Below are positions 6,757-62,615 of a stretch of DNA of 64,000 nucleotides, in pieces. A program made the translations under genes and the position numbers. Every line of letters begins with the position of its first letter. Position 1 is the first letter of the stretch. The notes below the pieces were generated by a model, which ran no database searches, was not told where the DNA came from, and saw only the letters and a list, made by a program, of their open reading frames with translations. The DNA lies in NCBI GenBank assembly GCA_963707115.1, contig CAVPOP010000001.1:180145-244144 (forward strand). The letters run 5' to 3'. The DNA comes from an uncultured Gammaproteobacteria bacterium. Lineage in GTDB: Bacteria; Pseudomonadota; Gammaproteobacteria; Steroidobacterales; Steroidobacteraceae.

Positions 6757-6768
6757 CTCTGGTTCTGC

Positions 6769-12444: not shown

Positions 12445-12460
12445 CGATATAATTCGGATT

Positions 12461-12748: not shown

Positions 12749-12810
12749 AAGACCGCCAAGACCGACATTGAGCTGGGCAAGGCCCGCTACAGGATGATTG
12801 GAGGATAGCC

Positions 12811-14918: not shown

Positions 14919-15086
14919 GGTCAATAGATGAACGGAATTCATATACCATGTCAAGTATTCATCTGTTGTGGCGGACTGACAGAAGCTGCCACGCTCAATT
15001 GCATTCCATCGCAACCGAAGGATGAACCAGTGTCGCGACCGCGGCCATGGATCGCACCAACCGGCGAGCCTAAGCACAGCCAATCC

Positions 15087-17842: not shown

Positions 17843-17847
17843 TAAGT

Positions 17848-17924
17848 TGGCGCGCCCGGACGGATTCGAACCGCCGACCACTGCGTTCGAAGCGCAGTGC
17901 TCTATCCAACTGAGCTACGGGCGC
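17848..17924 (-). tRNA. tRNA-Arg (anticodon TCG), copy 2
   Basis: The body is identical to copy 1. Here the 3' CCA is encoded (TGG at 17848..17850 on the plus strand). Confidence 0.9.
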
Positions 17925-18047
17925 AATCCGAAATCAGGTTCCGCAGGCCTGTGCCCGCTCCATATCTCTCCTCGATCGGCGGCGGTGTCCTATGGCCCCG
18001 TTCTGGCCCGTCGCCAGGGATCCGCCCAGCCTGCCCCGTTGCGCTAG

Positions 18048-42779: not shown

Positions 42780-43292
42780 GTGCCCCCTAGCCGCTCTCGT
42801 ACCACATCTGGCCCAGTCACAGTTCGCCGCTCGGGCGCGAGGGCCGCTTCGCTTGCCGCGCTGCTGCTGCCATTGCTAGCCGGAGCATTGGCCGGCCCTG
42901 CCTGGGCCGCCCTCGGGGACACGGTGGCTGCCCTAAGCTCGGACTCTCAGGCGCTGCAGGCCAGTCCACGTGTTGCCGCGCACGCGGCGTTCACGGTCCA
43001 CGAACTGCAGACGCCCACCGGCACGCTGATCCGGGAATTCGCCGCGCCGTCGGGTGTGGTGTTTGCCGTCTCCTGGCGCGGTCCGTTCAAGCCCAGCATG
43101 GGGCTGCTGCTGGGCCGCTACATGGGCGTGTATGCGCGCGCGCCGCGCAGCCCGGGATCGACGCGTTCGCACCTCAGCATCGAGCAACCGGATCTGGTTG
43201 TGCACGCGGGAGGCCACATGCGCGCGTTTGCCGGCATCGCCTATATACCGCAATTGCTCCCCGCCAACGTGGTCGAGGCGGACCTGCAATGA
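42780..43292 (+). CDS. Secreted protein of unknown function (DUF2844-like)
   Basis: GTG at 42780 gives a signal peptide (...AASLAALLLPLLAGALAGPAWA/ALGD). The stop overlaps the start of the next gene. Family name recalled, not verified. Confidence 0.45.
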   Translation: MPPSRSRTTSGPVTVRRSGARAASLAALLLPLLAGALAGPAWAALGDTVAALSSDSQALQASPRVAAHAAFTVHELQTPTGTLIREFAAPSGVVFAVSWRGPFKPSMGLLLGRYMGVYARAPRSPGSTRSHLSIEQPDLVVHAGGHMRAFAGIAYIPQLLPANVVEADLQ

Positions 43293-44571: not shown

Positions 44572-45207
44572 TCAGCGTTCGCCGTTGAGGAAGCGTACGA
44601 AGCGGTCCAGCGCTTGGCGCTGGTCGTCCCACAGCGTGTAGTTCAGCACCTCATCCCCCACGGTCGTCTGCACCTGCAGGCTCCGCGCGGCCGCAATAAA
44701 GCGCAGCGTGGCCAGGTCAGTCGGAAACACCAGTGGCTTGACCGTCCTTCCGGTGGGCGCGCCCACGGATCGAACAATGCCGAAATCCGCGGGAGTCCCG
44801 GCGCTCGTATCCAGCCGGATGCGCCGGTCGTCGGCCACCAGAACCAGGACATCGGCCACGGGCCTGGCCGGCTCATAGCGCGCGTCCAGCGTCGACCAGA
44901 CGTAGGCGATAAGCAGACAGTCCCGCTTGCCGCCGCGGTTCACGGTCGCGGCGGTCATGGTCACATAATCGCGTAGATTTGCGGCCCGTTCGCTCCGGTC
45001 CCGGGCGAACAGCAGCGGTTTGTCCATCGCCGTAACGGTGGCACCGCTCTGCTCATCGAGGTACTCGTAAGGCTGCTTGCCGTGTGCGGCCGCCGGGTCG
45101 ACGGCGGCAGGCCCGCTGGCGCACGCAGCAAGCAGCGCCGTGGTTCCACACACGGTGAACAAACTGCGACAGCGCGGCACTCGGGCGCGGCCTTGGCTAG
45201 AACGCAA
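44572..45207 (-). CDS. Lipoprotein of unknown function, translationally coupled to the upstream OM protein gene
   Basis: Lipobox TALLAAC/ASG. 211 aa. The start overlaps the stop of the 845-aa OMP gene by 11 nt. Confidence 0.5.
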   Translation of the reverse strand: MRSSQGRARVPRCRSLFTVCGTTALLAACASGPAAVDPAAAHGKQPYEYLDEQSGATVTAMDKPLLFARDRSERAANLRDYVTMTAATVNRGGKRDCLLIAYVWSTLDARYEPARPVADVLVLVADDRRIRLDTSAGTPADFGIVRSVGAPTGRTVKPLVFPTDLATLRFIAAARSLQVQTTVGDEVLNYTLWDDQRQALDRFVRFLNGER

Positions 45208-48015: not shown

Positions 48016-51000
48016 CTAATGCTTGAACGCCACGTTTGACGGCCGGTGGTACGGTCCCGGCTGTGGCTTGACGACCGTCTTCGCGGTGGCGTCGCTGTAG
48101 ACATGGCAGGCGCCGGCGCAATCGCGCAGCTCGCTCGAGGTGTACAGGATGCCGCCGCTCGTCTTCGGGTGCGCGACGGGCTTGAAGTCCTTGGTGTGGC
48201 AACCCGCACAGCTTCCGGCATTGGCCGGAGCCGGCCAGGGTATCAGGTCCGAATTGCTGGTATGACATGCGGTGCAGGCCAGCGCCGCCTTGTGATCGCC
48301 CGGATAAGCGCTCCCGGTATGCATGAAATGCGTCTGCGCCCAGTCCGGATAGCTGTGGCAGGTCGCGCAATCGAGTTTGCTGTTCATGTGAGTCGCCGGC
48401 ACGCCGAGCGCAACGGCATTGTTGTGACAGCTCACACACTGGCGGGTCAGAGTCGTGTGATCGACCTTGGCCGGCTTCCAGGCAAGAGTCCCGTGGCAGC
48501 TGTCGCACTGCGCGCCGGTCGGCACGTGGCTCGAGGGCAGACCCATGGCATGCACGCTGTCGTGGCAGCTCCTGCAGGTGTGCGCCGCCACTCCGGCATG
48601 GTCGAAGCGCGCGGGCGTCCAGGCATTCGTCGTATGGCAGGTCTCGCAGGTGTTGCTGCTCGCGATGTGGCTCATCGACTTGCCCTGCGCCACTCTGCCG
48701 TTGTGGCAGCTGGCACAACTGCCCTGCACCTGGGCGTGATCGACCATAACCACCGGCAGCCAGGCGTGCGTGTTGTGGCAGCTGCCACAGCCGTTGCTGC
48801 TCGCTATGTGGTCGGCGGGCTTGCCTGCGCCCTGCGCCGAGCTGTGGCAGGTCACGCACGGCGTAGCCGCCGCGCGCGTGTGATTGAATCCGCCCACCGC
48901 GGGCACCAGCGCGGCCGCGCCGCCCAGCGCCGAGCCTGCGCGGGTGAGTCCGCCGCCGGTGCCGGCCGCCGCAGCGCCCGGGCGTATGGCCCTCTTGTCG
49001 CGGGAGTTGTGGCAACCCGAGCCGCCGCAGTCCTGGCCCGCATGATGGTTGGCGCTGTCGCGTACCCACAGTCTCACGCCGGTGTTGGTCTTCCACTTCA
49101 TGCCCAATTCGTGACAACTCATGCAGGTGATGGTGGTCACGTAGGCGTGTTTCATGACCGTGCCCGCAAAGGTCGTGAAGTTGGTGGGGCTGTGGCACAG
49201 CTCGCAGGCGACGTTCAGACTCGATCCGTTGGGCGGGTTGGAAGGAATGTGCCCGGTCGCACCGGACGGCGGCTGCTTCAGGGTGGGCGGAGCCATGTTG
49301 GCGAACGACAGGCCGTAGGCGTGGCAGGTGGCGCAGCCCTTGGTAATGCCGGTGTGCCCGGTCGCGCCCATCACGTACACCGCGTAGTTGCCCGCGGTGG
49401 TGTGACACTGCGCGCACGGGGCGGTGGTCGGAATGTGGTTGGCCGGCTTGGATCCCCCCGACACGTTGCTTGAGAACGTCGGGGTATTCGTGTGACAGCC
49501 GCTGCAGTCGCCCGTGGTCGGGTGACTCTTATCGAGCGTCGCATTCGGCCGCGAGTCCCCGGCCGCGGTCGAGGTGCTGGCGATCATCCCGACATACGGG
49601 GCGGTCTCGTGGCAGCTGGTACACGCGCCGACCTGCCCGGCCACGGTGGTATGGCCGGCCACGTTCAGGGTCGGGCTGTTGAGGTTCGCCGCACCGATCT
49701 TGAAGCCCCCGGCCGTGAGCTTGGCGGTGGTGTGGCAGCCCGAGCCGTCGCAATCGAGATTGCCGATCGGGATGTGATTTATCCCGGTGGTGCTCACGAT
49801 CGTGATATTCGCAAAGGTGTTGGCCACCGCGGGCGCGTGGCAGCTCAGGCAGTTGGTCACGCCCTGGTGGGTGCCGGTCACCGAGTAGACGGCATTGTTG
49901 CCCGCGGTGGTGTGGCACTGCGCGCACGGGGCCGTGGTCGGTATGTGATTCGCAGGCTTCGCGTTGCCGGTCTGGTTCGTCGTGAACGTCGGGGTCGTGG
50001 TATGGCAGCCGTTGCAGTCGCCCGTGGTCGGGTGACTCTTATCAAGCGTCGCATTCGGCCGCGAGTCCCCTGCCACGGTCGAGGTGCTGGCGATCATCCC
50101 CACATAGGGCGCGGACTGGTGGCACGTCTGACAGGCCCCGACCTGCCCCGACACGGTGTTATGGCCGGCCACGTTCAAGGTCGGGGCGCTGACGCTTGCC
50201 GCGCCAATCTTGAACCCCCCCGCGGTGACCTTGGCTGTGCTGTGACAGCCCGATCCGTTGCAATCGAGGTTACCGATCGGGATGTGATTTATCCCGGTGG
50301 TGCTCACGATCGTGATATTCGCAAAGGTGTTGGCCACCGCAGGCGCGTGGCAGCTCAGGCAGTTGGTCACGCCCTGGTGGGTGCCGGTCACCGAGTAGAC
50401 GGCATTGTTGCCCACGGTGGTGTGACACTGCGCGCACGGGGCCGTGGTCGGTATGTGATTTGCAGGCTTCGCGTTGCCAGTCTGGTCCGTCGTGAACGTC
50501 GGGGTTGTGGTATGGCAACCGCTGCAGTCGCCCGTGGTCGGGTGACTCTTGTCCAGGGTGGCATTGGGCCGCGAGTCCCCGGCCGTGCTTGCGGTGCTGG
50601 CGATCATCCCCACGTAAGGCGCAGTCTCATGACAGGTGGTGCAGGCGGGTACCTTCCCCGCCACGGTGGTGTGTCCGGTCACGTTCAGGGTCGGCGCTGA
50701 AATGTTGGCCGCACCGAGCCTGAAACCACCGGCGGTGACCTTGGCTGTGCTGTGACAGCCCGAGCCGTTGCAATCCAGGTTGCCGATCGGCATGTGGTTG
50801 GTGCTGGCCGTGCCCACGATGGTGACGTTGGCCCAGCCACCCGCGGGCGGCGGCCCATGGCAGCTCAGGCAGTTACTCACGCCCTGGTGCGTGCCGCTCA
50901 CCGAATAGAGCGCGTAGTTGCCCGCGGTGGTGTGGCATTGGGAGCAGGTGGCGGTGGTCGGAATGTGGTTGGCAGGTTTCGCGCCCTGGGACACGTCCGA

Positions 51001-54000
51001 ACTAAAGGTGGGCGTCTGCGTGTGGCAGTCACCGCAGTCGCCGGTGGTCGGATGGTTCTTATCCAGCGTGGCATTGGGCCGCGAGTCCCCCGCCACGGTC
51101 GAGGTGCTGGCGATCATCCCGACGTAGGGCGCGGACTGGTGGCACGTCTGACAGGCCCCGACCTGCCCCGACACGGTGTTGTGGCCCGCTAAGCTCAAGG
51201 TCGGGCTATTGATGTTCGCCACGCCAATCTTGAACCCCCCCGCGGTGACCTTGGCTGTGCTGTGACAGCCCGAGCCGTTGCAATCCAGGTTGCCGATCGG
51301 CATGTGGTTGGTGCTGGCCGTGCCCACGATCGTGACGTTGGCCCAGCCACCCGCGGGCGGCGGCCCGTGGCAGCTCAGGCAGTTGCTCACGCCCTGGTGC
51401 GTGCCGCTCACCGAGTAGAGCGCGTAGTTGTTCGCCGTGGTATGGCACTGCGCGCACGGCGCGGTGGTCGGTATGTGGTTGGCCGGCTTGCTGCCGCCGG
51501 TCATGTCGCTCGCGAACGTCGGGGTCGTGGTGTGGCAGCCTGAGCAATCGCCGGCGGTGGGATGCAGCTTATCGAACGCGGTCGGCCGCGAGTCCCCCGC
51601 CACGGTCGAGGTGCTGGCGATCATCCCGACATACGGGGCGGTCTCGTGGCAGCTGGTACACGCGCCGACCTGCCCCGCCACGGTGGTGTGCCCGGTCACG
51701 TTCAGGGTCGGCGCTGAAATGTTGGCCGCACCGAGCCTGAAACCACCGGCGGTGACCTTGGCTGTGCTGTGACAGCCCGAGCCGTTGCAATCCAGGTTGC
51801 CGATCGGCATGTGGTTGGTGCTGGCCGTGCCCACGATGGTGACGTTGGCCCAGCCCCCCGCGGGCGGCGGCCCATGGCAGCTCAGGCAGTTACTCACGCC
51901 CTGGTGCGTGCCGCTCACCGAATAGAGCGCGTAGTTGCCCGCGGTGGTGTGGCATTGGGAGCAGGTGGCGGTGGTCGGAATGTGGTTGGCAGGTTTCGCG
52001 CCCTGGGACACGTCCGAACTAAAGGTGGGCGTCTGCGTGTGGCAGTCACCGCAGTCGCCGGTGGTCGGATGGTTCTTATCCAGCGTGGCATTGGGCCGCG
52101 AGTCCCCCGCCACGGTCGAGGTGCTGGCGATCATCCCGACGTAGGGCGCGGACTGGTGGCACGTCTGACAGGCCCCGACCTGCCCCGACACGGTGTTGTG
52201 GCCCGCTAAGCTCAAGGTCGGGCTATTGATGTTCGCCACGCCAATCTTGAACCCCCCCGCGGTGACCTTGGCTGTGCTGTGACAGCCCGAGCCGTTGCAA
52301 TCCAGGTTGCCGATCGGCATGTGGTTGGTGCTGGCCGTGCCCACGATCGTGACGTTGGCCCAGCCACCCGCGGGCGGCGGCCCGTGGCAGCTCAGGCAGT
52401 TGCTCACGCCCTGGTGCGTGCCGCTCACCGAGTAGAGCGCGTAGTTGTTCGCCGTGGTATGGCACTGCGCGCACGGCGCGGTGGTCGGTATGTGGTTGGC
52501 CGGCTTGCTGCCGCCGGTCATGTCGCTCGCGAACGTCGGGGTCGTGGTGTGGCAGCCTGAGCAATCGCCGGCGGTGGGATGCAGCTTATCGAACGCGGTC
52601 GGCCGCGAGTCCCCCGCCACGGTCGAGGTGCTGGCGATCATCCCCACGTAAGGCGCAGTCTCGTGACAATTGGCGCACGCCCCCACCTGCACGGCGACGG
52701 TCGCGTGGCCGGCCACGTTTAAGGTCGGCGCGCTGATGCTTGCCGCACCGATTTTGAACCCCCCCGCGGTCACCTTGGCTGTGCTGTGACAACCCGAGCC
52801 GTTGCAATCGAGGTTACCGATCGGAATGTGGTTTATCCCACTGGTGCTCACTATTTTGATATTGGCAAAGGTGCCGGCCACCGCAGGCGCGTGGCAGCTC
52901 AGGCAGTCGGTCACGCCCTGGTGGGTGCCGGTCACCGAGTAGAGCGCGAAGTTGCCCGCGGTGGTGTGGCACTGCGCGCAGGGGGCGCTGGTCGGAATGT
53001 GGTTGGCGGGCTTCGCGCCCTGGGACACGTCCGAACTAAAGGTGGGCGTCTGCGTGTGGCAGTCACCGCAGTCGCCGGCGGTCGGATGGTTCTTATCCAG
53101 CGTGGCATTGGGCCGCGAGTCCCCCGCCACGGTCGAGGTGCTGGCGATCATCCCGACGTAGGGCGCGGTCTCGTGACAATTGGTGCACGCTCCCACCTGT
53201 GCGGCCACCGTGGTATGTCCGGCCACGTTCAAGGTCGGCGTACTGATACTCGCCGCACCGATCCTGAACCCCCCCGCGGTCACCTTGGCTGTGCTGTGAC
53301 AGCCCGAGCCGTTGCAATCCAGGTTGCCGATGGGCATGTGGTTGGTGCTGGCCGTGCCCACGATCGTGACGTTGGCCCAGCCCCCCGCGGGTGGCGGCCC
53401 GTGGCAGCTCAGGCAGTCGGTCACGCCCTGGTGGGTGCCGCTCACCGAATAGAGCGCGTAGTTGTTCGCCGTGGTATGGCACTGCGCGCACGGCGCGGTG
53501 GTCGGTATGTGGTTGGCCGGCTTGCTGCCGCCGGTCATGTCGCTCGCGAACGTCGGGGTCGTGGTGTGGCAGCCTGTGCAGTCGCCGGTGGTGGGATGGT
53601 TCTTATCCAGCGTGGCATTGGGCCGCGAGTCCCCCGCCACGGTCGAGGTGCTGGCGATCATCCCGACGTAGGGCGCGGTCTCGTGACAATTGGTGCACGC
53701 CCCCACCTGTGCGGCCACCGTGGTATGTCCGGCCACGTTCAAGGTCGGCGTACTGATACTCGCCGCACCGATCCTGAACCCCCCCGCGGTCACCTTGGCT
53801 GTGCTGTGACAGCCCGAGCCGTTGCAATCCAGGTTGCCGATGGGCATGTGGTTGGTGCTGGCCGTGCCCACGATCGTGACGTTGGCCCAGCCCCCCGCGG
53901 GTGGCGGCCCGTGGCAGCTCAGGCAGTCGGTCACGCCCTGGTGGGTGCCGGTCACCGAGTAGAGCGAATTGTCTCCTGCCGTCGTGTGACACTGCGCGCA

Positions 54001-55347
54001 GGGCGCGCTGGTCGGAATGTGGTTAGCGGGCATGGCATTGCCGCTCTGATTCGAAGTGAACGTCGGCGTCGTGGTGTGGCAGCCGCTGCAGTCGCCAGCC
54101 GTTGGGTGACTCTTGTCCAAAGTGGCATTGGGCCGCGAGTCCCCCGCCACGGTCGAGGTGCTGGCGATCATCCCCACATAGGGCGAGGTCTCGTGACAGG
54201 TGCTACAGGCCGGCACCTTGCCCGCCACGGTCGTGTGTCCGGCCACGTTGAGGGTCGGGGCATTGATGCTCGCCGCACCCAGGCGGAAGCCCCCGGGGTT
54301 CACGTTGCTGGTGCTGTGACAACCCGAACCGTTGCAATCGAGGTTGCCGATCGGGATATGGTTGGTGCTGGCCGTGCCCACGATCGTGATGTTGGCCCAG
54401 CCGCCGGCCGGCGGTGGTCCGTGGCAGCTCAGGCACTCGCTCACTCCCAGGTGCGTGCCCGTCACGGAGTAACTGGAGTTCTGTCCCGGGGTCGTATGGC
54501 ACTGCGCGCACGGCGCGCTGGTCGGAATATGGTTTGCCGGTCGCAACGACGCGGCGGCGGTAAATGAAGTGGTATCGTGGCAGATGCCGCAGTCGCCGGT
54601 CGGGGGATGATTCTTGTCCAGCGTCGCGGATGGCCGCGAATCGTGCGCGGCGCTTGCAGTGCTCGGGATCATGCCCATGAACTGTGCCGTCTCGTGGCAG
54701 CTCTGGCAGGCCCAGCCGGCGGCGGTCGCGTGCACTGCCGGAGTCCCGGTCACATCGTGCCAGGTCGTGTAATTGGTGGGGGAATGGCACCCCTCGCAGC
54801 TTCCAGCCCCCGCCGGAACCGTCGGTATATGCGTTGCGGGCTGGCCCTTGGCACTCACGTTGTTGTGGCAGGACGCGCAGCCGGTAGTCATTCCATTGTG
54901 ATTGAACACGGCCCCCGCCCAGCCGATGGTGGAGTGGCAAACGCTGCAATCAAGGTCGGTGACAATGTGATTCGGGCCCTCGCCGCCAACCGGGCTGCCC
55001 GCGTAATGACAGCTCACGCAGCTGCCCATCACCTCGTTGTGGCTGAAGTTGACGGCCGGATTCCAGGCCACGGGCGTATGGCAGGCGTAACAATTGTTCG
55101 TGGTGAGAATGTGGTTGGCCGGCTTGGCCGAGGCGCGCACCGAGGTGCCCACGCCGTGACACTGCTCGCAGTCGCGGGGCGTGCCCTTGAATATGGCATT
55201 GACGTGGCAGGACTCGCATGGCAGGTCGCGATGCTGCCCGGTGAGTTCAAAGCCCGTGGTCAAATGGTCAAAGAGCGTCCGTTGCGCGGACACGCCCTCG
55301 GCGGCGTGTGCGCTCTCCGCAGGCCCCCACAGCGGCAGGCAGGCCAT
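48016..55347 (-). CDS. Giant multihaem c-type cytochrome (~75 haem-binding motifs)
   Basis: 2443-aa uninterrupted ORF. Hand count gives 63 CXXCH + 11 CX4CH (CNGSGCH/CDGSGCH/CGGSGCH) + 1 CX3CH (CAGACH). Ten tandem 169-170-aa pentahaem modules sit between paired-CXXCH N- and C-terminal regions. A signal-peptide-like AHA/AEG site lies near the N-terminus. Start codon uncertain (see findings). Confidence 0.9.
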   Translation of the reverse strand: MACLPLWGPAESAHAAEGVSAQRTLFDHLTTGFELTGQHRDLPCESCHVNAIFKGTPRDCEQCHGVGTSVRASAKPANHILTTNNCYACHTPVAWNPAVNFSHNEVMGSCVSCHYAGSPVGGEGPNHIVTDLDCSVCHSTIGWAGAVFNHNGMTTGCASCHNNVSAKGQPATHIPTVPAGAGSCEGCHSPTNYTTWHDVTGTPAVHATAAGWACQSCHETAQFMGMIPSTASAAHDSRPSATLDKNHPPTGDCGICHDTTSFTAAASLRPANHIPTSAPCAQCHTTPGQNSSYSVTGTHLGVSECLSCHGPPPAGGWANITIVGTASTNHIPIGNLDCNGSGCHSTSNVNPGGFRLGAASINAPTLNVAGHTTVAGKVPACSTCHETSPYVGMIASTSTVAGDSRPNATLDKSHPTAGDCSGCHTTTPTFTSNQSGNAMPANHIPTSAPCAQCHTTAGDNSLYSVTGTHQGVTDCLSCHGPPPAGGWANVTIVGTASTNHMPIGNLDCNGSGCHSTAKVTAGGFRIGAASISTPTLNVAGHTTVAAQVGACTNCHETAPYVGMIASTSTVAGDSRPNATLDKNHPTTGDCTGCHTTTPTFASDMTGGSKPANHIPTTAPCAQCHTTANNYALYSVSGTHQGVTDCLSCHGPPPAGGWANVTIVGTASTNHMPIGNLDCNGSGCHSTAKVTAGGFRIGAASISTPTLNVAGHTTVAAQVGACTNCHETAPYVGMIASTSTVAGDSRPNATLDKNHPTAGDCGDCHTQTPTFSSDVSQGAKPANHIPTSAPCAQCHTTAGNFALYSVTGTHQGVTDCLSCHAPAVAGTFANIKIVSTSGINHIPIGNLDCNGSGCHSTAKVTAGGFKIGAASISAPTLNVAGHATVAVQVGACANCHETAPYVGMIASTSTVAGDSRPTAFDKLHPTAGDCSGCHTTTPTFASDMTGGSKPANHIPTTAPCAQCHTTANNYALYSVSGTHQGVSNCLSCHGPPPAGGWANVTIVGTASTNHMPIGNLDCNGSGCHSTAKVTAGGFKIGVANINSPTLSLAGHNTVSGQVGACQTCHQSAPYVGMIASTSTVAGDSRPNATLDKNHPTTGDCGDCHTQTPTFSSDVSQGAKPANHIPTTATCSQCHTTAGNYALYSVSGTHQGVSNCLSCHGPPPAGGWANVTIVGTASTNHMPIGNLDCNGSGCHSTAKVTAGGFRLGAANISAPTLNVTGHTTVAGQVGACTSCHETAPYVGMIASTSTVAGDSRPTAFDKLHPTAGDCSGCHTTTPTFASDMTGGSKPANHIPTTAPCAQCHTTANNYALYSVSGTHQGVSNCLSCHGPPPAGGWANVTIVGTASTNHMPIGNLDCNGSGCHSTAKVTAGGFKIGVANINSPTLSLAGHNTVSGQVGACQTCHQSAPYVGMIASTSTVAGDSRPNATLDKNHPTTGDCGDCHTQTPTFSSDVSQGAKPANHIPTTATCSQCHTTAGNYALYSVSGTHQGVSNCLSCHGPPPAGGWANVTIVGTASTNHMPIGNLDCNGSGCHSTAKVTAGGFRLGAANISAPTLNVTGHTTVAGKVPACTTCHETAPYVGMIASTASTAGDSRPNATLDKSHPTTGDCSGCHTTTPTFTTDQTGNAKPANHIPTTAPCAQCHTTVGNNAVYSVTGTHQGVTNCLSCHAPAVANTFANITIVSTTGINHIPIGNLDCNGSGCHSTAKVTAGGFKIGAASVSAPTLNVAGHNTVSGQVGACQTCHQSAPYVGMIASTSTVAGDSRPNATLDKSHPTTGDCNGCHTTTPTFTTNQTGNAKPANHIPTTAPCAQCHTTAGNNAVYSVTGTHQGVTNCLSCHAPAVANTFANITIVSTTGINHIPIGNLDCDGSGCHTTAKLTAGGFKIGAANLNSPTLNVAGHTTVAGQVGACTSCHETAPYVGMIASTSTAAGDSRPNATLDKSHPTTGDCSGCHTNTPTFSSNVSGGSKPANHIPTTAPCAQCHTTAGNYAVYVMGATGHTGITKGCATCHAYGLSFANMAPPTLKQPPSGATGHIPSNPPNGSSLNVACELCHSPTNFTTFAGTVMKHAYVTTITCMSCHELGMKWKTNTGVRLWVRDSANHHAGQDCGGSGCHNSRDKRAIRPGAAAAGTGGGLTRAGSALGGAAALVPAVGGFNHTRAAATPCVTCHSSAQGAGKPADHIASSNGCGSCHNTHAWLPVVMVDHAQVQGSCASCHNGRVAQGKSMSHIASSNTCETCHTTNAWTPARFDHAGVAAHTCRSCHDSVHAMGLPSSHVPTGAQCDSCHGTLAWKPAKVDHTTLTRQCVSCHNNAVALGVPATHMNSKLDCATCHSYPDWAQTHFMHTGSAYPGDHKAALACTACHTSNSDLIPWPAPANAGSCAGCHTKDFKPVAHPKTSGGILYTSSELRDCAGACHVYSDATAKTVVKPQPGPYHRPSNVAFKH
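49450..54540 (-). repeat. Intragenic tandem array of ten ~507-510-bp coding repeats (pentahaem modules)
   Basis: Each unit starts PANHIPT..C.QCH. Shadow-ORF pairs in the track are identical at offsets of 1017 nt (e.g. 50918..51127 vs 51935..52144; 51206..51547 vs 52223..52564) and 510 nt (53161-53440 vs 53671-53950, 1 mismatch seen in the stretches compared). Confidence 0.9.
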
Positions 55348-55429
55348 CGCCGCTAGCGCCGCGAGGCGCAGTGCGCTTGCAGACCAAACCGATCGGCGCC
55401 TTGTTGGGGAAGTGGTTTGCAGATCCCGC

Positions 55430-56995
55430 CTACCTTGCGCGCCCGCCCTGGAAGGTCACCGTCGTATGACAGCGCTCGCAGCGCCGTCCAAATTGACCAT
55501 CATGCACGTCATCCTTCTGATGACAGGAAATACAGTCCGGCGAAAGCTTCACTTCGGCCGCAGGCTGTCGATGGCAGCCGGCACACTTGAGCTTGGCGTG
55601 CGCACCAAACAGTCCAAAGCCAGTTTGCTTGAAATGATCGTACTCCCAGAGTGCCCAACCATTCGGGCTATGACAACTGTCGCACTTTTCGCTCAGTCCC
55701 CCCTTGTGCACGTCGTCCTTACGGTGGCAGTCGACACAGCGCGACTTGGCCTCGCCAAACGCCTGCGTGCGATGGCACTGGGCGCAACTCACCACATTAT
55801 GTAAACCGAGCAGCGGATAGACCGTCAGGTCGTGGTCGAAATTGATCTGGCTGCGCCAGTCCTGCTGCGTGTGGCAACTGTCGCAGGAGGTGTGGAAGCT
55901 CTTGCCGTGAGGACTGGCCGCCCGATGGCAGCCGTTGCAGTCCGTGGCCAGCTTTTGAGTGGCCGCGTTCGCGGTATGGCACACGTGGCAATCGAGCTTG
56001 GCGTGTATGCCCAGCAGCGCGAATTTTGTCTTCGCGAGGTGGTCGTACTTGACCGGCCGCCAGACCTCGTTGTCATGGCAGTCGCCGCACTTGCCGCCAA
56101 AGCGCCCCGCGTGAGAATCATCCGCCCGATGGCAGCCGTAGCAGTCCTTGGGAATCTTGTCCTTGTACACGCCACTGCGGTGGCAGCCCAGGCAGTCGAT
56201 CTTGGCGTGCTGACCGAGCAGTGCGAAACCGGTCTCCTTCTCATGGTCGAACTTCGCCGTCTTCCATTCGGTGGTCGTGTGGCACTTGCCGCAGTCGCTG
56301 CCACGTTCGCCTCGATGCGCGTCATCCGTCAAGTGACAACCGGCACAGGTCTTTGGGCCGCCCTTGTAATGGCCGCCCAAGTGACAGCTCCCGCAGCTCA
56401 GGGTCTGGTGCGCTCCGGTCAGAGGAAACTCCGTCTTGGCATGATCAAAGCGCGCCGCGGTCCAGTTATCGGAGCTATGGCAATCATTGCAGGTGGTCGC
56501 GAGCTGGCCCTGGTGGTAATCGTCCTTCTTGTGGCAGCTGATACATGCGGACGACGCCTTGCGGTAGGCCTCGCCGGTCTTGTGGCAACTATCGCAGCCC
56601 AGCGTGCGGTGTGCGCCGGCCAGCGGGAAATCGGTGCGCTCGTGGTCGAATTCCGCGATATTCAAGCGCACGATGTCAGCCCCGCGCCCCAGGTGTTCGG
56701 TGTGACAGCCGACGCACTTGCCCGTGCCCGCATTGGCCATCAGCCCGTGGTACCCCTTGTGCTCGCGTATGTCGGCGGCAATTGGTTTGTGGCAATCGAG
56801 GCATAGCGCGCTCTGGCGCATTCGGTCCGTGCGGTCGTGACAATTACTGCACCCCTCTTCCAGTTTGGCATGCGCCGTGCTCAGCGGACCGGGCATCAGC
56901 AGGCTCTCCACTGCGGCCGCATGGGCGCCGGGCGCGGTGATCGTGCCGGCGGCCAGCAGCATGCCCACCAACCACCCGCCTCCAGTCCGTCGCAT
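55430..56995 (-). CDS. 21-haem periplasmic cytochrome built of seven c7/c3-like trihaem modules
   Basis: Signal peptide (MRRTGGGWLVGMLLAAGTITAPGAHA). 21 CXXCH by hand count in 521 aa. The module F(D/N)H..T.F.L.G.H....C..CH ... C..CH..DD.H.G.....C..CH recurs seven times. Confidence 0.9.
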   Translation of the reverse strand: MRRTGGGWLVGMLLAAGTITAPGAHAAAVESLLMPGPLSTAHAKLEEGCSNCHDRTDRMRQSALCLDCHKPIAADIREHKGYHGLMANAGTGKCVGCHTEHLGRGADIVRLNIAEFDHERTDFPLAGAHRTLGCDSCHKTGEAYRKASSACISCHKKDDYHQGQLATTCNDCHSSDNWTAARFDHAKTEFPLTGAHQTLSCGSCHLGGHYKGGPKTCAGCHLTDDAHRGERGSDCGKCHTTTEWKTAKFDHEKETGFALLGQHAKIDCLGCHRSGVYKDKIPKDCYGCHRADDSHAGRFGGKCGDCHDNEVWRPVKYDHLAKTKFALLGIHAKLDCHVCHTANAATQKLATDCNGCHRAASPHGKSFHTSCDSCHTQQDWRSQINFDHDLTVYPLLGLHNVVSCAQCHRTQAFGEAKSRCVDCHRKDDVHKGGLSEKCDSCHSPNGWALWEYDHFKQTGFGLFGAHAKLKCAGCHRQPAAEVKLSPDCISCHQKDDVHDGQFGRRCERCHTTVTFQGGRAR

Positions 56996-57016: not shown

Positions 57017-57859
57017 CTAATACACGGTCACTGAAATCACGTGCACGATTCCGGCAACCAGCGTCATGATGAAGAACGGCACGTGGGCCACGTGCCACAG
57101 GGAAAAGAGTTTCACGTAGTAGCCGTGCTCGCGCACGCGGCGCACCGCGTCCAGACGCCGCGTGGCGTAGCTCGTGGCGTTGGCAGTCAGGCGTTGGCCG
57201 TGCGCCGCGAGCACGGGGGACTCGTGCGCCGCCTGCAGCACCATGTCACGGATCTCACTGTCCAAACGCCAACGCGCCAGCGCCGACCGCATGCCAACGG
57301 TGACCGGCTGCACCAATGCACCCAGCGGCGTCTTGGCCGGACGGAAGAGCCGCTGTTCCTCGCGCTCGATCGCCTCCAGGTAGCCCGGCAGCAGCGTGAT
57401 GGTGTTGCTCTGCTGGCGCAACTGCTCGGCGACCGCCTTCAACTCCTCGAGTGTGGTGCTGTGCTCGTGCCATTCGCCGTACACCCTGCTGTAGATGTAC
57501 CGGCCAATTAGGCCGCTGCCGGATACGGCCAACATGCAGAACAGGGCCACGTTGCTGTTGGTGGCGCCGAGCGAAAAATTCGAGTGAAACAAGATCAGCA
57601 GCGGCCCGACAATGCCGAGCGTCATGTGGATGCGATACCAGATAGGTACGCCACCAATGACGTGTAGCCATTGGGCGCGCTTGCGTGCCGGATATAGCAG
57701 CAGCACCAGCATCAGCGACCCCCCCACGATCCCGAGCGCGTATCCGAGTCCGCGCGTCGGCGTGATATAGCGCTCCAAGTGCGCGTTGTATCCCCACAGC
57801 AGCGCCACCACCACAGCGAAGCCAAAGACGCGCACCGGCGTTAGCATTCGCTCCGTCAT
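57017..57859 (-). CDS. Integral membrane protein with two HX13H pairs (putative di-haem b-type cytochrome)
   Basis: About 5 TM helices. TM3 is RIHMTLGIVGPLLILFH and TM5 is AHVPFFIMTLVAGIVH, each with two His exactly 13 residues apart. A helical soluble loop of about 110 aa separates TM4 and TM5. The gene lies 21 nt upstream of the 21-haem gene and 9 nt downstream of the CcmI-like gene. Confidence 0.55.
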   Translation of the reverse strand: MTERMLTPVRVFGFAVVVALLWGYNAHLERYITPTRGLGYALGIVGGSLMLVLLLYPARKRAQWLHVIGGVPIWYRIHMTLGIVGPLLILFHSNFSLGATNSNVALFCMLAVSGSGLIGRYIYSRVYGEWHEHSTTLEELKAVAEQLRQQSNTITLLPGYLEAIEREEQRLFRPAKTPLGALVQPVTVGMRSALARWRLDSEIRDMVLQAAHESPVLAAHGQRLTANATSYATRRLDAVRRVREHGYYVKLFSLWHVAHVPFFIMTLVAGIVHVISVTVY

Positions 57860-57868: not shown

Positions 57869-59134
57869 CTAGCCGATCACTCGCTGAATCACCACCCGCA
57901 CCGGTTTGCCCGCGGCGGGATCAAACTGGGCCGTCACACCCTGAAAATCGCCGGCGGCGGGCATCGCCTGGCCGGTCCGTGAAGTGCGGGCCTCAATGGT
58001 CACAGCGCCCGCCGTCGAGAGCTTGCGTGTCGGCACCATGGCCTGGGAATCGTCGAGCTGAAACGGCAGCGGCCAGGTGCCGGTCGTGGTCTTGATGATG
58101 GCCACGGGCGGGCCCGCGGAGTTGACGGATTTCGCGACAATGAAGAGCGTCAGCCCGGCCGGAATCCGGCCCTTGAGCGCGTCCGCCACCACCACTTCAC
58201 CGCGCACGCTCATGCCGCTTGCGCCTCCCGCCGGAGGCGCCGGTGGCGCGGCCGCGCCGGCCAGGCGCTGGTCCTCGGCAAGGTTTGCGGCGATGACCTT
58301 CGCGTCATCGGAGTTCGGCGGCAACACCGCGGCCAGTTGCTTCCAACTGTCCACAGCCGCCTGGTATTGGTGCGTTTCGTGCAGCATGCTGGCATTGAGC
58401 CACAAGGCCTTGGGATGCTGGGGATTGAGGCGCAGCGCATTGTTCAGGTAGGTCGTGGGTGGCCCGACCAGCGAATTACCATTGAGCGTGCCCACCACAT
58501 CCGCATAGTCCGCCCAGGTGTCGGCAGTCATCTCGTTGCGCGCGGCGAGTTTGGCGTAGATGTCGCGAGCTTTGGCGAAGTTGCGCTGGGCACGTGCCGC
58601 CTGCGCGGCCTCCACCAGCTTGAGCGCCTCGGCGGACAACGGCGCCGGGGCTGGCGCCGGCGGCGCCGCGGTCGTGACCGCCGGGTTCGGCGCGCTGGCG
58701 GTCAGGCGTTTCTGGCGTGCGGCGGCCGCATCGGCGGTCCGCCCGAGAAACTCATAGGACTTGGCCAGCAATTCCCAGTCCCCGTCGGTGCCGCCGTTCG
58801 CGGCAAGGCGCCGCTCCAGACCGGATATGGCGGTATCCATGGAACCGGCGCTCTGCTTTTGCGCGCCCGTCGTGCCGGCGCCGGGAGCGCCGCTTGGGCC
58901 GCTCATGGCACCCACCGGAGCGGCGTCACGATCGTTGAGTTGCGGGCTGCCCAGTCTTATGTAAAGTGCCAAGGCGACTGCCATCACGGCAACGCCCGCG
59001 ACCGGCGTCCAGCGGGGCAAAGCGCTCAGCAGTGCCGTGCGCGGCCTTCCGGCGAGCCACGGATACACCACAAACAGCAGCGCAATAACGGCCAGGGCCC
59101 CGATAGCGAAGTAAAAGCCATTACCGAGGCTCAT
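57869..59134 (-). CDS. CcmI/CycH-like c-type cytochrome biogenesis (apocytochrome chaperone) protein
   Basis: Two N-terminal TM helices (FYFAIGALAVIALLFVVYPWLAGR; TPVAGVAVMAVALALYIRLG), TPR-like repeats, and the C-terminal block LTLFIVAKSVNSAGPPVAIIKT...LPFQLDDSQAM....LS....VTIEARTSRTGQA typical of CcmI/CcmH C-terminal domains. No other ccm genes in the window. Confidence 0.65.
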   Translation of the reverse strand: MSLGNGFYFAIGALAVIALLFVVYPWLAGRPRTALLSALPRWTPVAGVAVMAVALALYIRLGSPQLNDRDAAPVGAMSGPSGAPGAGTTGAQKQSAGSMDTAISGLERRLAANGGTDGDWELLAKSYEFLGRTADAAAARQKRLTASAPNPAVTTAAPPAPAPAPLSAEALKLVEAAQAARAQRNFAKARDIYAKLAARNEMTADTWADYADVVGTLNGNSLVGPPTTYLNNALRLNPQHPKALWLNASMLHETHQYQAAVDSWKQLAAVLPPNSDDAKVIAANLAEDQRLAGAAAPPAPPAGGASGMSVRGEVVVADALKGRIPAGLTLFIVAKSVNSAGPPVAIIKTTTGTWPLPFQLDDSQAMVPTRKLSTAGAVTIEARTSRTGQAMPAAGDFQGVTAQFDPAAGKPVRVVIQRVIG

Positions 59135-59304: not shown

Positions 59305-60645
59305 GTGGCCATTGGGCCCGTGAGATTTGACCTAATGAAATTGAGCCTAATCGCCGTATACGCCGCGCCGTTCATGTTGATCATGTTCTGGTATCTGCGG
59401 CGGCATTTTCGCTTTGAGAAGATCAGCCGCGCAGTGCACTTCGAGGCGAAGGAAGCCGGCCTGCTCGAGCCCGCCTCCCTGCACCCGGTCATCGACCCGG
59501 TGCGCTGTCTGGGTTGCGGCGCGTGCGTGCGCGCGTGCCCGGAGTACCCGCAGCATACCGTGCTTGGCCTGATCAACAACAAAGCACAGCTGGTCAACCC
59601 CACAGAATGTATCGGTCATGGCGCCTGCAAGTCTGCCTGCCCGGTTGATGCCATTTCGCTGGTGTTTGGCACCGCGACGCGCGGAATCGACCTGCCGGTG
59701 CTGCTGCCGAATTTTGAGACCAACGTCCCGGGCGTATTCATTGCCGGCGAACTGGGCGGCATGGGGCTGATACGGAACGCGTTGATTCAGGGAATCCAGG
59801 CCGTTGAAGCCATCCAGAAGAAGAACCAGCGCGCCCCCGGCAAGCGCCTGGACGTGCTCATCGTGGGCGCCGGCCCGGCCGGCATGGCCGCCTCACTCAC
59901 GGCCAAGTCGCTGAAACTTACCTACCGCACGGTTGAACAGGAGTCGCTCGGAGGCTGCGTATTCAAATACCCGCGCGGCAAACTGGTCATGACGGCGCCG
60001 GTCGAGCTGCCGCTGGTGGGCCGCTTTCACTTCCGCCACACCTCCAAAGAGGCCCTGCTCAAAGTCTGGACCGAGATCATGCAGCGCGAACAGCTGCGGA
60101 TCCAGACCAACGAGCGCGTGGCCTCCATTGAAAAGGACGGCGATGGGTTCATTGTCCGCACGTCCAAGGCCGCCTACCGCGCCTCGACGGTGCTGCTCGC
60201 GATCGGGCGGCGCGGCACACCCCGCAAACTGGCCGTGCCGGGTGAGGAACTGCCCAAGGTCGTGTACCGGCTGGTCGATCCCGACCAGTACATCGGCCAG
60301 GAGGTGCTCGTGGTCGGTGGCGGGGACAGCGCCCTGGAAGCGGCCGCGAGCGTCGCGGAGGTCTCGGGTACGCAGGTCACGCTCTCCTATCGCGGCGACG
60401 CCTTCGGTCGGGCCAAGCCCAGGAACCGTCAGCGGGTTGCACAGGCTGCAGATCGCGGCAATCTGAAGCTATTGCTGTCCTCGAGCGTCAGTGAAATCAA
60501 CCATGACCTGGTGATTCTCGAACATGGCGGCACGCAGGTCGCGATCAAGAACGAGGCGGTTATCATCAGCGCTGGCGGCGTCCTGCCGAACGAATTCCTA
60601 AAGACGGTCGGCATCCGAGTCGAAACCAAATACGGCACCGCCTGA
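59305..60645 (+). CDS. Membrane-anchored 2x[4Fe-4S] ferredoxin-domain / FAD-NAD(P)H oxidoreductase
   Basis: N-terminal TM helix followed by a basic stretch (YLRRHFRFEK, so the catalytic part is predicted cytoplasmic). CLGCGACVRACP and CIGHGACKSACP cluster motifs. VLIVGAGPAGMAA (FAD) and VLVVGGGDSALEAA (NAD(P)H) Rossmann motifs. Confidence 0.8.
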   Translation: MAIGPVRFDLMKLSLIAVYAAPFMLIMFWYLRRHFRFEKISRAVHFEAKEAGLLEPASLHPVIDPVRCLGCGACVRACPEYPQHTVLGLINNKAQLVNPTECIGHGACKSACPVDAISLVFGTATRGIDLPVLLPNFETNVPGVFIAGELGGMGLIRNALIQGIQAVEAIQKKNQRAPGKRLDVLIVGAGPAGMAASLTAKSLKLTYRTVEQESLGGCVFKYPRGKLVMTAPVELPLVGRFHFRHTSKEALLKVWTEIMQREQLRIQTNERVASIEKDGDGFIVRTSKAAYRASTVLLAIGRRGTPRKLAVPGEELPKVVYRLVDPDQYIGQEVLVVGGGDSALEAAASVAEVSGTQVTLSYRGDAFGRAKPRNRQRVAQAADRGNLKLLLSSSVSEINHDLVILEHGGTQVAIKNEAVIISAGGVLPNEFLKTVGIRVETKYGTA

Positions 60646-62615
60646 TGTGCGCCGTGACGCGCTGGGCGCTGGCGCTGCTGGTGCTGCTTGCCATTATTGA
60701 CGGCGCTCCGGCGCGAGCAAAAGCCGCGCACCCGCTCGAGAGCGCCAAGCTGGCGCTGAGAACCCGCGACTATCCGGCGGCGCTGGCGCAGCTGCAACAA
60801 AGCGCCACCGCCGGCGATGCCCAGGCGCAGCTCCTGCTTGGCCTGGTCAACCTCAATGGCGTGGGCACCAGCGTGAATCAGCCCGCGGCCGAGAGCTGGT
60901 TGAGCAAGAGCGCCGCTCAAGGCAACGCGACCGCAGCCTACGTGCTGGCCGCGCTCTACGCCCGCCGGAGCGATGCGCCACCCGGTGCATCGCAGGCGAT
61001 GTTGCACAAGGCGGCTGCCCTCGGATCGACCGAAGCGATCGAGGACCTGCGTGCCGGCCGCGAACCACTCAGCCCGGATTGGGCGGGTCTCTCGGACAGT
61101 GCGCTGCGCACCGATCTGGCGATCTACAGTGCCCGCAATGCCGATATCGAATGCCTGAAGGCCATGGGAACCGCGGTGAAGGATCTGCGCGACCCGTTTG
61201 GCAGCTCGCTGCTCGCGCATGCGGTAGCCACCGGGGCCCTCAGCTCCGCACAGCTGCTGATCCAAGCCGGAAGCGACGTGAATCACGCCGACAGTTTCGG
61301 CGTCACCCCCCTGATGCTGGCGGCCCGCCTGGAAACCACGCAAATGCTCGAATTTCTGCTGACCAAGGGCGCCAGCGTGGCGGCCGTTGATCAAGCGAGT
61401 CGCACGGCCCTGTTCTACGCCGCGCGAGCCAACCGGCCGCAGGCCGTGGCGAAACTGGTGCAGGCCGGCGCGAAGCTCGACGCCACCGACAGCGGCGACT
61501 ATACGGCGCTCGACGCCGCACTCAGCGCGGACGCCGACCAGGCCGCAACGCAACTGCGGTCGCTCGGGGCCAGGAACCTGGTCGCGCACGCCGCCCGCGA
61601 TAGCAACGTGGGCAAGTTTGATTCCGCCCGTCCGGGCGACCTGTATCGCGGTTGGCCGGTCGTGGCCCTGGCGGTCGCGCGCAATGACGTGAACTCGGTG
61701 CGTACACTGCTCGCCGATGGCGCCGACCCCGACAGTCGCACCAGCCAGGGAGACACCCTCTTGCACGTCGCGCTCCACGTCGGCTCCGAGGCAACGCTCA
61801 AGGCGCTGCTGGCGGCGCACGCGAATCCAAAGCTGGCTGACAAGCGCGGTCGGACGGTCTTGGTGCTGGCAGCAACCCGCGGCGAACTCAGCCTCGTCAG
61901 CGCCCTGCTGGCCGGCCAGGTCCCTGCCGACACACGCGCCACCGGGGAATCCACGCCACTGCTGGCAGCCGTGCGGGCCGGACATGTCGAGATCGCCCAG
62001 AGCCTGCTCGCCGCCGGTGCCCGGGCCGACCTGGCCGACGAGCACGGCGATACCCCGTTACTGGCGGCCGCGACCAGTGGCAACGCCGCGCTCGTCAAGG
62101 TCCTGCTGACCGGCGGCGCCTCAGCGCGGCTTGCGGATCCGCGCGGTGAAACCCCGCTGTGGCGCGCAGCCCATAAGGGCTCAGCAGACGCCACGCTTCT
62201 GCTGCTCGAGGCCGGCGCCGAGGTGGACGCCGCCGACCGCGAAGGGCGTACGCCGTTGATGTGCGCGATTGTCGCAGGCCAGGACCAAGTGGCCTCGATC
62301 CTGCTCCAGGCTCACGCGCGTGTCGATGCGAAGGCGGCAAACGGGGATACGCCGCTGATGATGGCCGCGGCCTTCGGGAGCGGCGCCCTGGTGCATTCGC
62401 TGCTGCAGCGCCCGGGCGACGTCAATGCCAGCAACCGTGACGGCGATACGGCGCTAATCGCAGCCAGCCGGAACGGCAACAAGGCGGCCGTCAAGGTGCT
62501 GCTGGCCGGAGGCGCCAGCACGGCGCTGCGCAACAGCAAGCGGGCCACGGCCGCGGACGTGGCGCGAGACCGGGGCTTCGGTGATTTGGCCGAACTGATT
62601 GGCGGCAAGGGATAG
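60645..62615 (+). CDS. Exported Sel1-repeat / ankyrin-repeat protein
   Basis: Signal peptide (WALALLVLLAIIDGAPARA). Sel1-like AQLLLGLVNLNGVGTSVNQPAAESWLSKSAAQGNATAAYVLAALY. Twelve or more ankyrin units follow (G.TPL..AA..G....V..LL..GA..). The start overlaps the upstream stop (TGATG). Confidence 0.85.
   Translation: MCAVTRWALALLVLLAIIDGAPARAKAAHPLESAKLALRTRDYPAALAQLQQSATAGDAQAQLLLGLVNLNGVGTSVNQPAAESWLSKSAAQGNATAAYVLAALYARRSDAPPGASQAMLHKAAALGSTEAIEDLRAGREPLSPDWAGLSDSALRTDLAIYSARNADIECLKAMGTAVKDLRDPFGSSLLAHAVATGALSSAQLLIQAGSDVNHADSFGVTPLMLAARLETTQMLEFLLTKGASVAAVDQASRTALFYAARANRPQAVAKLVQAGAKLDATDSGDYTALDAALSADADQAATQLRSLGARNLVAHAARDSNVGKFDSARPGDLYRGWPVVALAVARNDVNSVRTLLADGADPDSRTSQGDTLLHVALHVGSEATLKALLAAHANPKLADKRGRTVLVLAATRGELSLVSALLAGQVPADTRATGESTPLLAAVRAGHVEIAQSLLAAGARADLADEHGDTPLLAAATSGNAALVKVLLTGGASARLADPRGETPLWRAAHKGSADATLLLLEAGAEVDAADREGRTPLMCAIVAGQDQVASILLQAHARVDAKAANGDTPLMMAAAFGSGALVHSLLQRPGDVNASNRDGDTALIAASRNGNKAAVKVLLAGGASTALRNSKRATAADVARDRGFGDLAELIGGKG

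Follow-up and report, generated by a model that had tools for sequence, protein, structure and literature searches.

In a 64,000-nucleotide stretch of DNA from an uncultured gammaproteobacterium of the family Steroidobacteraceae (GenBank assembly GCA_963707115.1, contig CAVPOP010000001.1, positions 180,145 to 244,144; hereafter the window, numbered from its first letter) we find a minus-strand gene, between positions 55430 and 56995, for a 521-residue protein with 21 CXXCH haem-binding motifs. The protein is very probably the periplasmic subunit of a PCC3 cluster, a predicted electron route across the cell envelope of Gram-negative bacteria. We also think it probable that it works as an electron wire, which spans the periplasm between an inner-membrane protein on one side and a porin with its giant cytochrome on the other.

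The PCC3 gene cluster and its 21-haem cytochrome

PCC3 was defined by a membrane protein of approximately 300 residues with five helices, which bears WX3HX13H twice and SGXXG once (He et al. 2017, Front Microbiol 8:1584, PMC5566968). The other components described in that study are two cytochromes and a porin. The periplasmic cytochrome has 21 haems as its median; the extracellular one has a median of 34 and a repetitive sequence, in which small residues abound. The 21-haem PCC3 subunit presented in Supplementary Figure 1 of He et al. consists of seven repeats of approximately 66 residues, the first of which is weak, and a 24-haem one of eight repeats (PMC5566968). The PCC3 subunits of Gallionellaceae have 21, 24 or 27 haems (PMC9900912). 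In Sideroxydans lithotrophicus ES-1 the genes follow each other in the order Slit_1446 (membrane protein), Slit_1447 (periplasmic cytochrome), Slit_1448 (extracellular cytochrome) and Slit_1449 (porin) (PMC11429942). The window contains genes answering to each of these descriptions, all on the same strand and in the order of Slit_1446-1449, with a gene for a CcmI/CycH-like protein at their head. The features of this block are the following:

57017-57859, minus strand: PCC3 inner-membrane protein of 280 residues, a putative dihaem-b transmembrane electron carrier, recognized by its motifs
55430-56995, minus strand: 21-haem periplasmic multihaem cytochrome, very probably the PCC3 periplasmic subunit; open reading frame, 21 CXXCH, Pfam Cytochrome_C7 88 bits
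56918-56995, minus strand: Sec-type signal peptide of the 21-haem protein, residues 1-26, MRRTGGGWLVGMLLAAGTITAPGAHA followed by AAVESLLMPG, read from the sequence
56654-56887, minus strand: three-haem module 1, divergent from the others (residues 37-114); haems at C49, C65 and C94, invariant histidines 42, 83 and 101
55433-56653, minus strand: six clean three-haem repeats of 66-71 residues (residues 115-181, 182-247, 248-315, 316-384, 385-450 and 451-521)
48016-55422, minus strand (48016-55347 if called from the first ATG): giant extracellular-type multihaem cytochrome, recognized by haem motifs and composition
45197-47707, minus strand: outer-membrane protein of approximately 836 residues, the PCC3 porin; Pfam SPOR and TPR_16, C-terminal ...YRIAF, barrel model

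The number of 21 CXXCH motifs given in the original prediction was exact. A motif scan of the whole protein found 21 of them, which hold all 42 cysteines, and not a single CX3CH, CX4CH or CXXCK variant. This number is far beyond chance, because 2000 residue-shuffled versions of the protein contained 0.30 CXXCH on average and never more than 4. The distance from one CXXCH to the next cycles through 16-17, 18 and 32-33 residues. When the protein was cut at the FDH histidines, the six clean modules listed above were obtained, which show 32-45% pairwise identity, or 18-35% if cysteines and histidines are left out. Of the seven repeats of approximately 68-70 residues that had been proposed, these six can be retained as they are; the first module possesses its three haem sites, but it is divergent, with longer spacers and no FDH histidine. 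The repeat pattern FDH..F.L.G.H....C..CH / C..CH..DD.H / C..CH....W, also part of that proposal, fits modules 2-7 with small deviations, namely AASPH instead of DD.H in module 5 and F instead of W in module 7.

Attachment of c-type haem requires export. The N-terminus of the 21-haem protein has two arginines, a hydrophobic core and the residues A-H-A before the mature N-terminus; this signal peptide was called by eye from the sequence and not by a dedicated predictor. The consensus of the site, A-x-A-(A)-SVE(T/S)LLMPG, is conserved in the alignments of homologues. Reading of the N-terminus revealed no lipobox cysteine, and a hydropathy scan of the protein found no membrane segment. The protein thus reads as exported by a Sec-type signal and free of an anchor, in agreement with the periplasmic location that had been claimed for it. 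In its mature form it has 23.6 residues per haem. The mature N-terminus conforms to the pattern L-[LV]-[MST]-P-G-x-[LV]-x-x-x-H-x-x-x-E..C..CH (residues 29-53, window approximately 56837-56911), which is kept in many distant relatives (P0244, P0247, P0250, P0254, P0258, P0266, P0269 and others) despite divergence elsewhere, and Met34 is invariant among the close homologues. This motif is a candidate docking or entry site.

The 21-haem gene lies directly between the genes of the membrane protein (57017-57859) and of the giant cytochrome (48016-55347), on the same strand as both, as had been noted previously. The two WX3HX13H motifs of the 280-residue membrane protein are at residues 74 and 255, and its SGXXG motif is at residue 115. 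A hydropathy scan delineated four hydrophobic segments in it, with the first WX3HX13H falling on a less hydrophobic fifth, and in size, helices and motifs the protein agrees with the PCC3 definition. It passed the threshold of no Pfam or NCBIfam family (there was only a weak match to DUF4405, E 0.086) and matched no solved chain. He et al. argue that the four histidines in the two WX3HX13H motifs make a two-haem transmembrane carrier (PMC5566968), and we infer that the 280-residue protein binds two haem b.

The giant cytochrome, translated from the first ATG, has 2443 residues with 63 CXXCH, 11 CX4CH and 1 CX3CH motifs. Like the extracellular cytochromes of PCC3, the protein has a repetitive sequence with much threonine (13%), alanine (12%), glycine (11%) and serine (9%). 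Its Pfam matches are to c7 and to MtrC/MtrF domain II/IV, and its location is predicted to be extracellular. All 11 CX4CH motifs are CNGSGCH, and the protein could have up to 75 haems if every motif binds one. Starting from the first ATG (55347) it is without a signal peptide. An in-frame CTG at approximately 55422, 7 nucleotides past the stop codon of the 21-haem gene, restores one (MQTTSPTRRRSVWSASALRLAALAAMACLPLWGPAESAHA followed by AEG; window 55347-55429), and in L001, a locus with 90% identity, an ATG occupies the corresponding position. This CTG is probably the true start, and a standard gene call probably makes the gene too short.

The AlphaFold2 model of the porin (806 residues as called, alignment of 58 sequences) has a mean predicted local distance difference test score (pLDDT) of 78, and begins with a beta domain, continues with a SPOR domain and TPR helices and ends in 22 long strands at residues 357-805, where the pLDDT is approximately 85-92. 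The C-terminal residue is phenylalanine. The top Foldseek matches were all outer-membrane barrels, i.e. FimD/PapC ushers, AlgE and general porins, with a best E of 1e-11. The porin of the Leptothrix PCC3 also has 22 transmembrane strands (He et al. 2017, PMC5566968). Residues 22-344 of the 806 make up a periplasmic N-terminal extension, composed of the beta domain, the peptidoglycan-binding SPOR domain and the TPR helices, and the counterpart of this porin in a distant pseudomonadotal locus (L031) has an AMIN domain and TPR. This part of the porin might serve to anchor the conduit at the cell wall or to keep the cytochrome in place.

Homologues of the 521-residue protein are numerous: there are more than 5,496 in a 90%-clustered collection at E<=1e-10, most of them 507-530 residues long, and 5,328 representatives in a 50%-clustered library at E<=1e-3, 1,148 of which remain at E<=1e-30. 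The scan of a genome collection found loci in Steroidobacterales/Steroidobacteraceae and in metagenome-assembled genomes (MAGs) of other Gammaproteobacteria, with up to 90% identity, as well as in Nitrospira/Nitrospiraceae at 36-42% identity; weaker partial matches came from a Planctomycetaceae MAG and a Holophagae MAG. In the sequence-cluster look-ups all names were those of MAGs or read "hypothetical protein", and a cultured host was not among them. Across the loci examined the same block recurs, consisting of the membrane protein, the 21-haem protein, the giant cytochrome and an outer-membrane protein of approximately 820-860 residues. Synteny is kept in approximately 40 loci, down to 43% identity, and in about as many the membrane protein gene stands directly upstream of the 21-haem gene. 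The giant cytochrome of the related loci has 42 to 85 haem motifs. L031, at 43% identity, has the same block with a second cytochrome of only 7 haems. The view that such an arrangement is not standard outside Desulfuromonadales has to be abandoned: PCC3, with its median of 21 haems, was published in 2017 for Alpha-, Beta- and Gammaproteobacteria (PMC5566968), and the protein has more than 5,000 homologues.

Three-haem units, haem ligands and repeat evolution

Comparison with family profiles supported the proposed relationship to cytochrome c7. Pfam PF14522 Cytochrome_C7 matched the whole protein with 88.1 bits in 4 stretches (gathering cut-off 24.8), and the scores of Cytochrom_c3_2 and Cytochrom_CIII were 57 and 44.5 bits. 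A plain sequence search with the whole protein against the PDB chains gave no match. When a repeat profile, built from 48 module copies, was searched against solved structures, the best matches were GSU1996 (3OV0, E 6e-11) and then the two-domain AB fragment (3OUQ, 1.8e-8). Nine-haem and sixteen-haem c3-type polymers, MtrF and OmcA followed lower, and single-domain PpcA/c7 reached only E~0.3.

Both the Pfam alignment (residues 293-358) and the GSU1996 alignment straddle the boundary of the modules as they were drawn in the original prediction. The order of a c7-type domain corresponds to the DD.H and third haem of module n, followed by the FDH, the G.H and haems 1 and 2 of module n+1. The six units shifted in this way scored 26.1, 28.6, 25.0, 30.8, 20.3 and 23.0 bits on the Pfam c7 model (model positions 6-67 of 67), four of the six passing the cut-off singly, as against 20.0, 21.4, 18.5 and 16.0 bits, with compressed coverage, for four modules in the former register. 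Because the shifted units outscore the modules, the protein would be described, in c7 terms, as six c7-like units preceded by an N-terminal cap with two haems and followed by a single C-terminal haem.

Narrower models were not reached. NCBIfam TIGR04257 "nanowire_3heme" (cut-off 40) gave 21.2, 14.8, 15.9 and 8.2 bits on shifted units 2, 4, 5 and 6, covering approximately positions 18-75 of 75; there was no reported match for units 1 and 3, and nothing at E<0.01 for the whole protein. The Geobacter c7 equivalog NF043011 CytC7_Geobact (cut-off 120) gave 7-12 bits per unit. Judged by these profiles, the three-haem units are distantly related to cytochrome c7 and to the domains of GSU1996. What persists of the predicted GSU1996/c7-type organization is the passing of the Pfam c7 model and the place of GSU1996 as top solved relative; on the other side stand the shift of the register by one haem, the narrow models and the ligands, which differ.

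When 26 homologues with 59-88% identity were aligned, every one of the 21 CXXCH motifs was invariant, and so were exactly 21 histidines outside them. With 76 homologues the same positions were invariant except H205, H263 and C374, each of which is kept in at least 90%. Neither alignment contains a conserved methionine inside modules 2-7. Because the 21 conserved non-motif histidines match the 21 haems, the simplest reading is that the protein carries 21 low-spin bis-His c-type haems. The ligands of the unit are laid out as H..CXXCH..H..H..CXXCH..CXXCH, and the layout of c7 is HxxH..CXXCH..H..CXXCH..CXXCH. In GSU1996 each three-haem domain has one His-Met haem (PMC10138318); this trait appears to be missing from the 21-haem protein, whose 21 conserved histidines suffice for 21 haems.

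Of the 120 closest homologues, which are not independent sequences, 105 have 21 haems and 9 have 24, 27, 33, 36 or 39; the exceptions are six proteins with 17, 20 (three proteins), 31 and 37 haems. A set of 149 diverse representatives covers 13 to 94 haems, and in 80 of them the number is a multiple of three, as compared with approximately 50 expected (binomial p = 2.6e-7). Members of the family grow and shrink by three haems at a time, from 13 up to 94. The largest number belongs to P0241 (2321 residues; 94 CXXCH), where a triplet spacing of 32/16/18-25 is repeated up to approximately 30 times (the 32/16/25 form approximately 30 times), and exceeds the 85-haem maximum of He et al. 2017.

Within the 21-haem group, a module of the protein from the window is, on average, 63% identical to the module in the same position in species with at most 65% overall identity, and only 39% to modules in other positions. 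Tandem Repeats Finder detected no tandem repeats in the DNA. A seed-based search detected them only in the giant gene and not in the 21-haem gene: there are ten tandem copies of 510 bp (170 residues) with 65-93% identity at 49322-54430 of the window, and the giant gene looks prone to expansion, contraction and assembly error. Because the modules of the periplasmic subunit are conserved by position and its gene is without DNA-level repeats, whereas the giant gene has tandem copies, the periplasmic subunit appears to be an old design of fixed length and the extracellular cytochrome to be evolutionarily fluid. A fixed length would suit a part that has to match a fixed distance, i.e. the periplasm.

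Proposed role in the periplasm

After Sec export and haem attachment, the 21 bis-His haems would be arranged in a continuous chain at approximately 24 residues per haem, in tandem three-haem units which were duplicated long ago. One end of the chain would exchange electrons, either taking or giving them, at the periplasmic face of the five-helix two-haem-b protein. This end would be the N-terminal cap, which follows the invariant (A)VE(S/T)LLMPG..H, and at the other end the C-terminal haem would reach the approximately 22-strand barrel and the giant surface cytochrome with its up to 75 haems. Electrons could then cross the whole periplasm through the chain, with no need for diffusing shuttles. 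GSU1996 is reportedly approximately 12 nm long, from which a length of approximately 20 nm can be extrapolated for the 21-haem chain. The linear arrangement of the haems and the contacts with the membrane protein and the porin are, like this length, predicted features. The 12 haems of GSU1996 form a linear, crescent-shaped wire (PMC10138318), and Hoover et al. suggested such a shuttle-free crossing of the periplasm for PCC3 subunits of 21-27 haems (PMC9900912). The wire could serve either the oxidation of extracellular Fe(II)/Mn(II) or the reduction of extracellular acceptors.

In line with the original prediction, the protein could be a free periplasmic store or relay of electrons, a "capacitor" in the manner proposed for GSU1996, which would buffer electrons and form no fixed bridge across the envelope. 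GSU1996, the closest solved relative by profile, has been proposed to be a capacitor (PMC10138318), and such a role was raised also for the haems of PCC3 by Hoover et al. (PMC9900912). The 21-haem protein is without an anchor, and its 21 low-spin haems would hold 21 electrons. Storage would be compatible with a role as wire, but as the explanation of the protein by itself we consider it unlikely. The gene is linked in fixed order to those of the membrane protein, the porin and the extracellular cytochrome in approximately 40 loci and in distant lineages, the narrow family of GSU1996 domains was not reached, and the His-Met haem of GSU1996 is missing. The length of seven modules, conserved by position, fits a wire matched to a distance better than a store.

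The protein could also be imagined as an insert of the MtrA type, which extends no farther than the porin and the periplasm near it. It would then receive its electrons through diffusing carriers or from the quinone pool by other routes, and the 280-residue protein would be otherwise employed, for example in assembly. MtrCAB and MtoAB do use separate periplasmic shuttles (PMC7096707), the 280-residue protein belongs to no curated family, and the proposal that it binds haem b comes from its motifs only. Nevertheless, four histidines spread over two helices, in two WX3HX13H motifs, mark a protein as a two-haem transmembrane carrier, and in nearly all loci the membrane protein gene is adjacent to the 21-haem gene and co-oriented with it, with a gap of 18 nucleotides. 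Moreover, crossing of the outer membrane alone does not need twice the haems of MtrA. We think this explanation very unlikely, and prefer that of the periplasm-spanning wire.

Several observations speak against the wire or weaken the case for it. The AlphaFold2 model of the 21-haem protein is of moderate quality (pLDDT 68.7, predicted template modelling score 0.31), and Foldseek found no match for it in the PDB, although the model was made without haems and haem-packed chains have little regular structure. Structural modelling, which had been proposed as a check, thus brought no structural confirmation of the linear haem chain. Membership in PCC3, very probable in our view, was judged from motifs, haem counts, the barrel model and gene order. 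The function of PCC3 has been shown in no organism, and as late as 2025 the description given to it was "functionally unverified". When RNA and DNA sequencing runs were searched together, no RNA run was returned, only DNA runs from soil and rhizosphere, with at most 23% of the words. Finally, the barrel of the porin, with its 22 strands, is smaller than that of MtrB, which has 26, and may not have the cytochrome threaded through it.

Flanking genes and comparison with known systems

The genes which adjoin the cluster on its two sides are:

57869-59134, minus strand: CcmI/CycH-like protein of cytochrome-c biogenesis, first in the cluster; Pfam Ig_CycH 88.6 bits
59305-62615, plus strand: divergent two-gene unit recognized by Pfam, a flavoprotein (59305-60645) and an exported ankyrin/Sel1-repeat protein (60645-62615)
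44572-45207, minus strand: putative lipoprotein of 211 residues with an LLAAC lipobox-like sequence, downstream of the porin

The CcmI/CycH-like protein scored 25.7 bits on TPR_CcmH_CycH, under the cut-off of 42. Its gene lies upstream of the membrane protein gene in approximately 40 loci, and stands alone in the 64-kb window, which contains no other ccm gene. Possibly the protein is an apocytochrome chaperone dedicated to the 21-haem and the approximately 75-haem proteins.

The flavoprotein is anchored by a membrane helix at its N-terminus and contains two [4Fe-4S] motifs as well as a YpdA/thioredoxin-reductase-like FAD/NAD(P) domain. Its gene overlaps, at 60645, the start of the ankyrin/Sel1 gene, to which it is translationally coupled. 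The pair is found beside the cluster in approximately 40 gammaproteobacterial loci; in L031 (5333-8640) it directly faces the gene of the membrane protein, and no CcmI gene separates the two. P0251, a protein of 1307 residues, consists of the flavoprotein (residues 1-441), a hydrophobic segment (466-484) and then 34 haems in three-haem modules of the same type, and could have arisen by natural fusion or by read-through from one gene into its neighbour. The flavoprotein unit may belong to the PCC3 system. In a locus of Nitrospira (L045, 14891-16204) the gene of the flavoprotein closes a ccmE-F-G-H-I operon, which adjoins the cytochrome gene, and some loci of Nitrospiraceae have the pair of membrane protein and cytochrome with no flavoprotein within 10 kb.

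At first we read the flavoprotein as the likely electron-input partner of the wire, a reading that was weakened by the ccm operon of Nitrospira. It would have the wire, in this lineage, coupled to cytoplasmic NAD(P)H through the flavoprotein and the two-haem-b protein, as a "split NOX/ferric-reductase-like" module, which hands its electrons to the 21-haem chain and from there to the giant surface cytochrome with its up to 75 haems, instead of being fed by quinones; feeding from the quinone pool was proposed for PCC3 by He et al. 2017 (PMC5566968). The presence of the flavoprotein at approximately 40 loci, its position opposite the membrane protein in L031 and its junction with c7-like repeats in P0251 agree with such a coupling. 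The end position in the Nitrospira ccm operon and the absence from some loci of Nitrospiraceae in which membrane protein and cytochrome occur together speak against it, and we regard both the coupling to NAD(P)H and the transfer from such a module to the chain as quite doubtful. The flavoprotein may instead be an accessory of cytochrome maturation, which works with the CcmI-like chaperone.

The 211-residue putative lipoprotein matched no Pfam family. Together with a DUF3443 protein (43289-44569) it is encoded just downstream of the porin, and both are found near the cluster in most related loci. Elsewhere in the window we noted a rise of the G+C content from approximately 0.60 to approximately 0.65-0.68 near 18 kb (1-18000 compared with 18000-64000), an IS110-family transposase at 31115-32134 and a VIT-family iron/manganese transporter at 23086-24114.

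It is useful to compare the 21-haem protein with multihaem cytochromes described previously. GSU1996 of Geobacter sulfurreducens (PDB 3OV0), a dodecahaem protein of four c7-type domains, likewise consists of tandem three-haem domains and has a very low residue-to-haem ratio, and it shares with our repeat profile the aligned segments "FD", "G..C..CH" and "..H......C..CH". The two proteins differ in the number of haems (12 vs. 21) and in their ligands. In the "HDIH" of GSU1996 the second histidine corresponds to that of DD.H, and the first is replaced by aspartate in the 21-haem protein; the FDH histidine is leucine in GSU1996 ("FDL"), and the G.H histidine aligns beside the methionine-containing "MLDME". 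The gene of GSU1996 is not part of a porin cluster, unlike the 21-haem gene, and the GSU1996 group is confined to Geobacterales (PMC11492766). Cytochrome c7 (PpcA), a single three-haem domain of approximately 70 residues, resembles the units of the 21-haem protein, which appear to have three bis-His haems per approximately 67 residues; the order of ligands and haem sites in c7 is different.

The decahaem subunits MtrA, MtoA and DmsE of the MtrCAB-type systems share with the 21-haem protein the proposed role, i.e. that of a periplasmic multihaem protein which works with an outer-membrane barrel and a surface cytochrome. In sequence there is no real membership: TIGR03508, the MtrA/DmsE model (cut-off 192; ten haems), gave 23 bits on the 21-haem protein, which has twice as many haems. 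Similarly, the porin does not specifically resemble MtrB, as its top 50 fold matches were ushers, AlgE and general porins.

The closest likeness is to the periplasmic cytochromes of PCC3, such as Slit_1447 of S. lithotrophicus ES-1 and the 21-haem protein of the Riftia endosymbiont. The number of 21 haems is the median of this family, the density is approximately 24-26 residues per haem, and the seven repeats of approximately 66 residues with a weak first one have their parallel in the modules found here. The position of the gene is also shared, between the five-helix WX3HX13H/SGXXG membrane protein and the giant repetitive cytochrome, followed by the porin. The locus differs from those described in its host, a Steroidobacterales-like soil gammaproteobacterium of a lineage not mentioned in the main text of He et al. 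2017, in the very large extracellular partner (63 CXXCH and 12 variant motifs) and in the conserved CcmI-like gene, flavoprotein and ankyrin/Sel1 protein, which are not described in the PCC3 papers cited here. Nor do those papers mention c7 or GSU1996.

PCC3 is among the most widespread of the predicted envelope electron routes of Gram-negative bacteria. A complete and very large PCC3, with 21 plus up to 75 haems, is standard in Steroidobacterales-like bacteria of soil and rhizosphere, which are common and not regarded as metal oxidisers or reducers. The all-histidine layout and the three-haem units should permit rational cutting of the 21-haem protein into expressible fragments, and the CcmI-like chaperone and the ferredoxin-flavoprotein, which travel with the cluster, are candidate requirements for expressing or powering the conduit. 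Set beside the systems compared above, the locus refines the known picture of PCC3 and does not change it.

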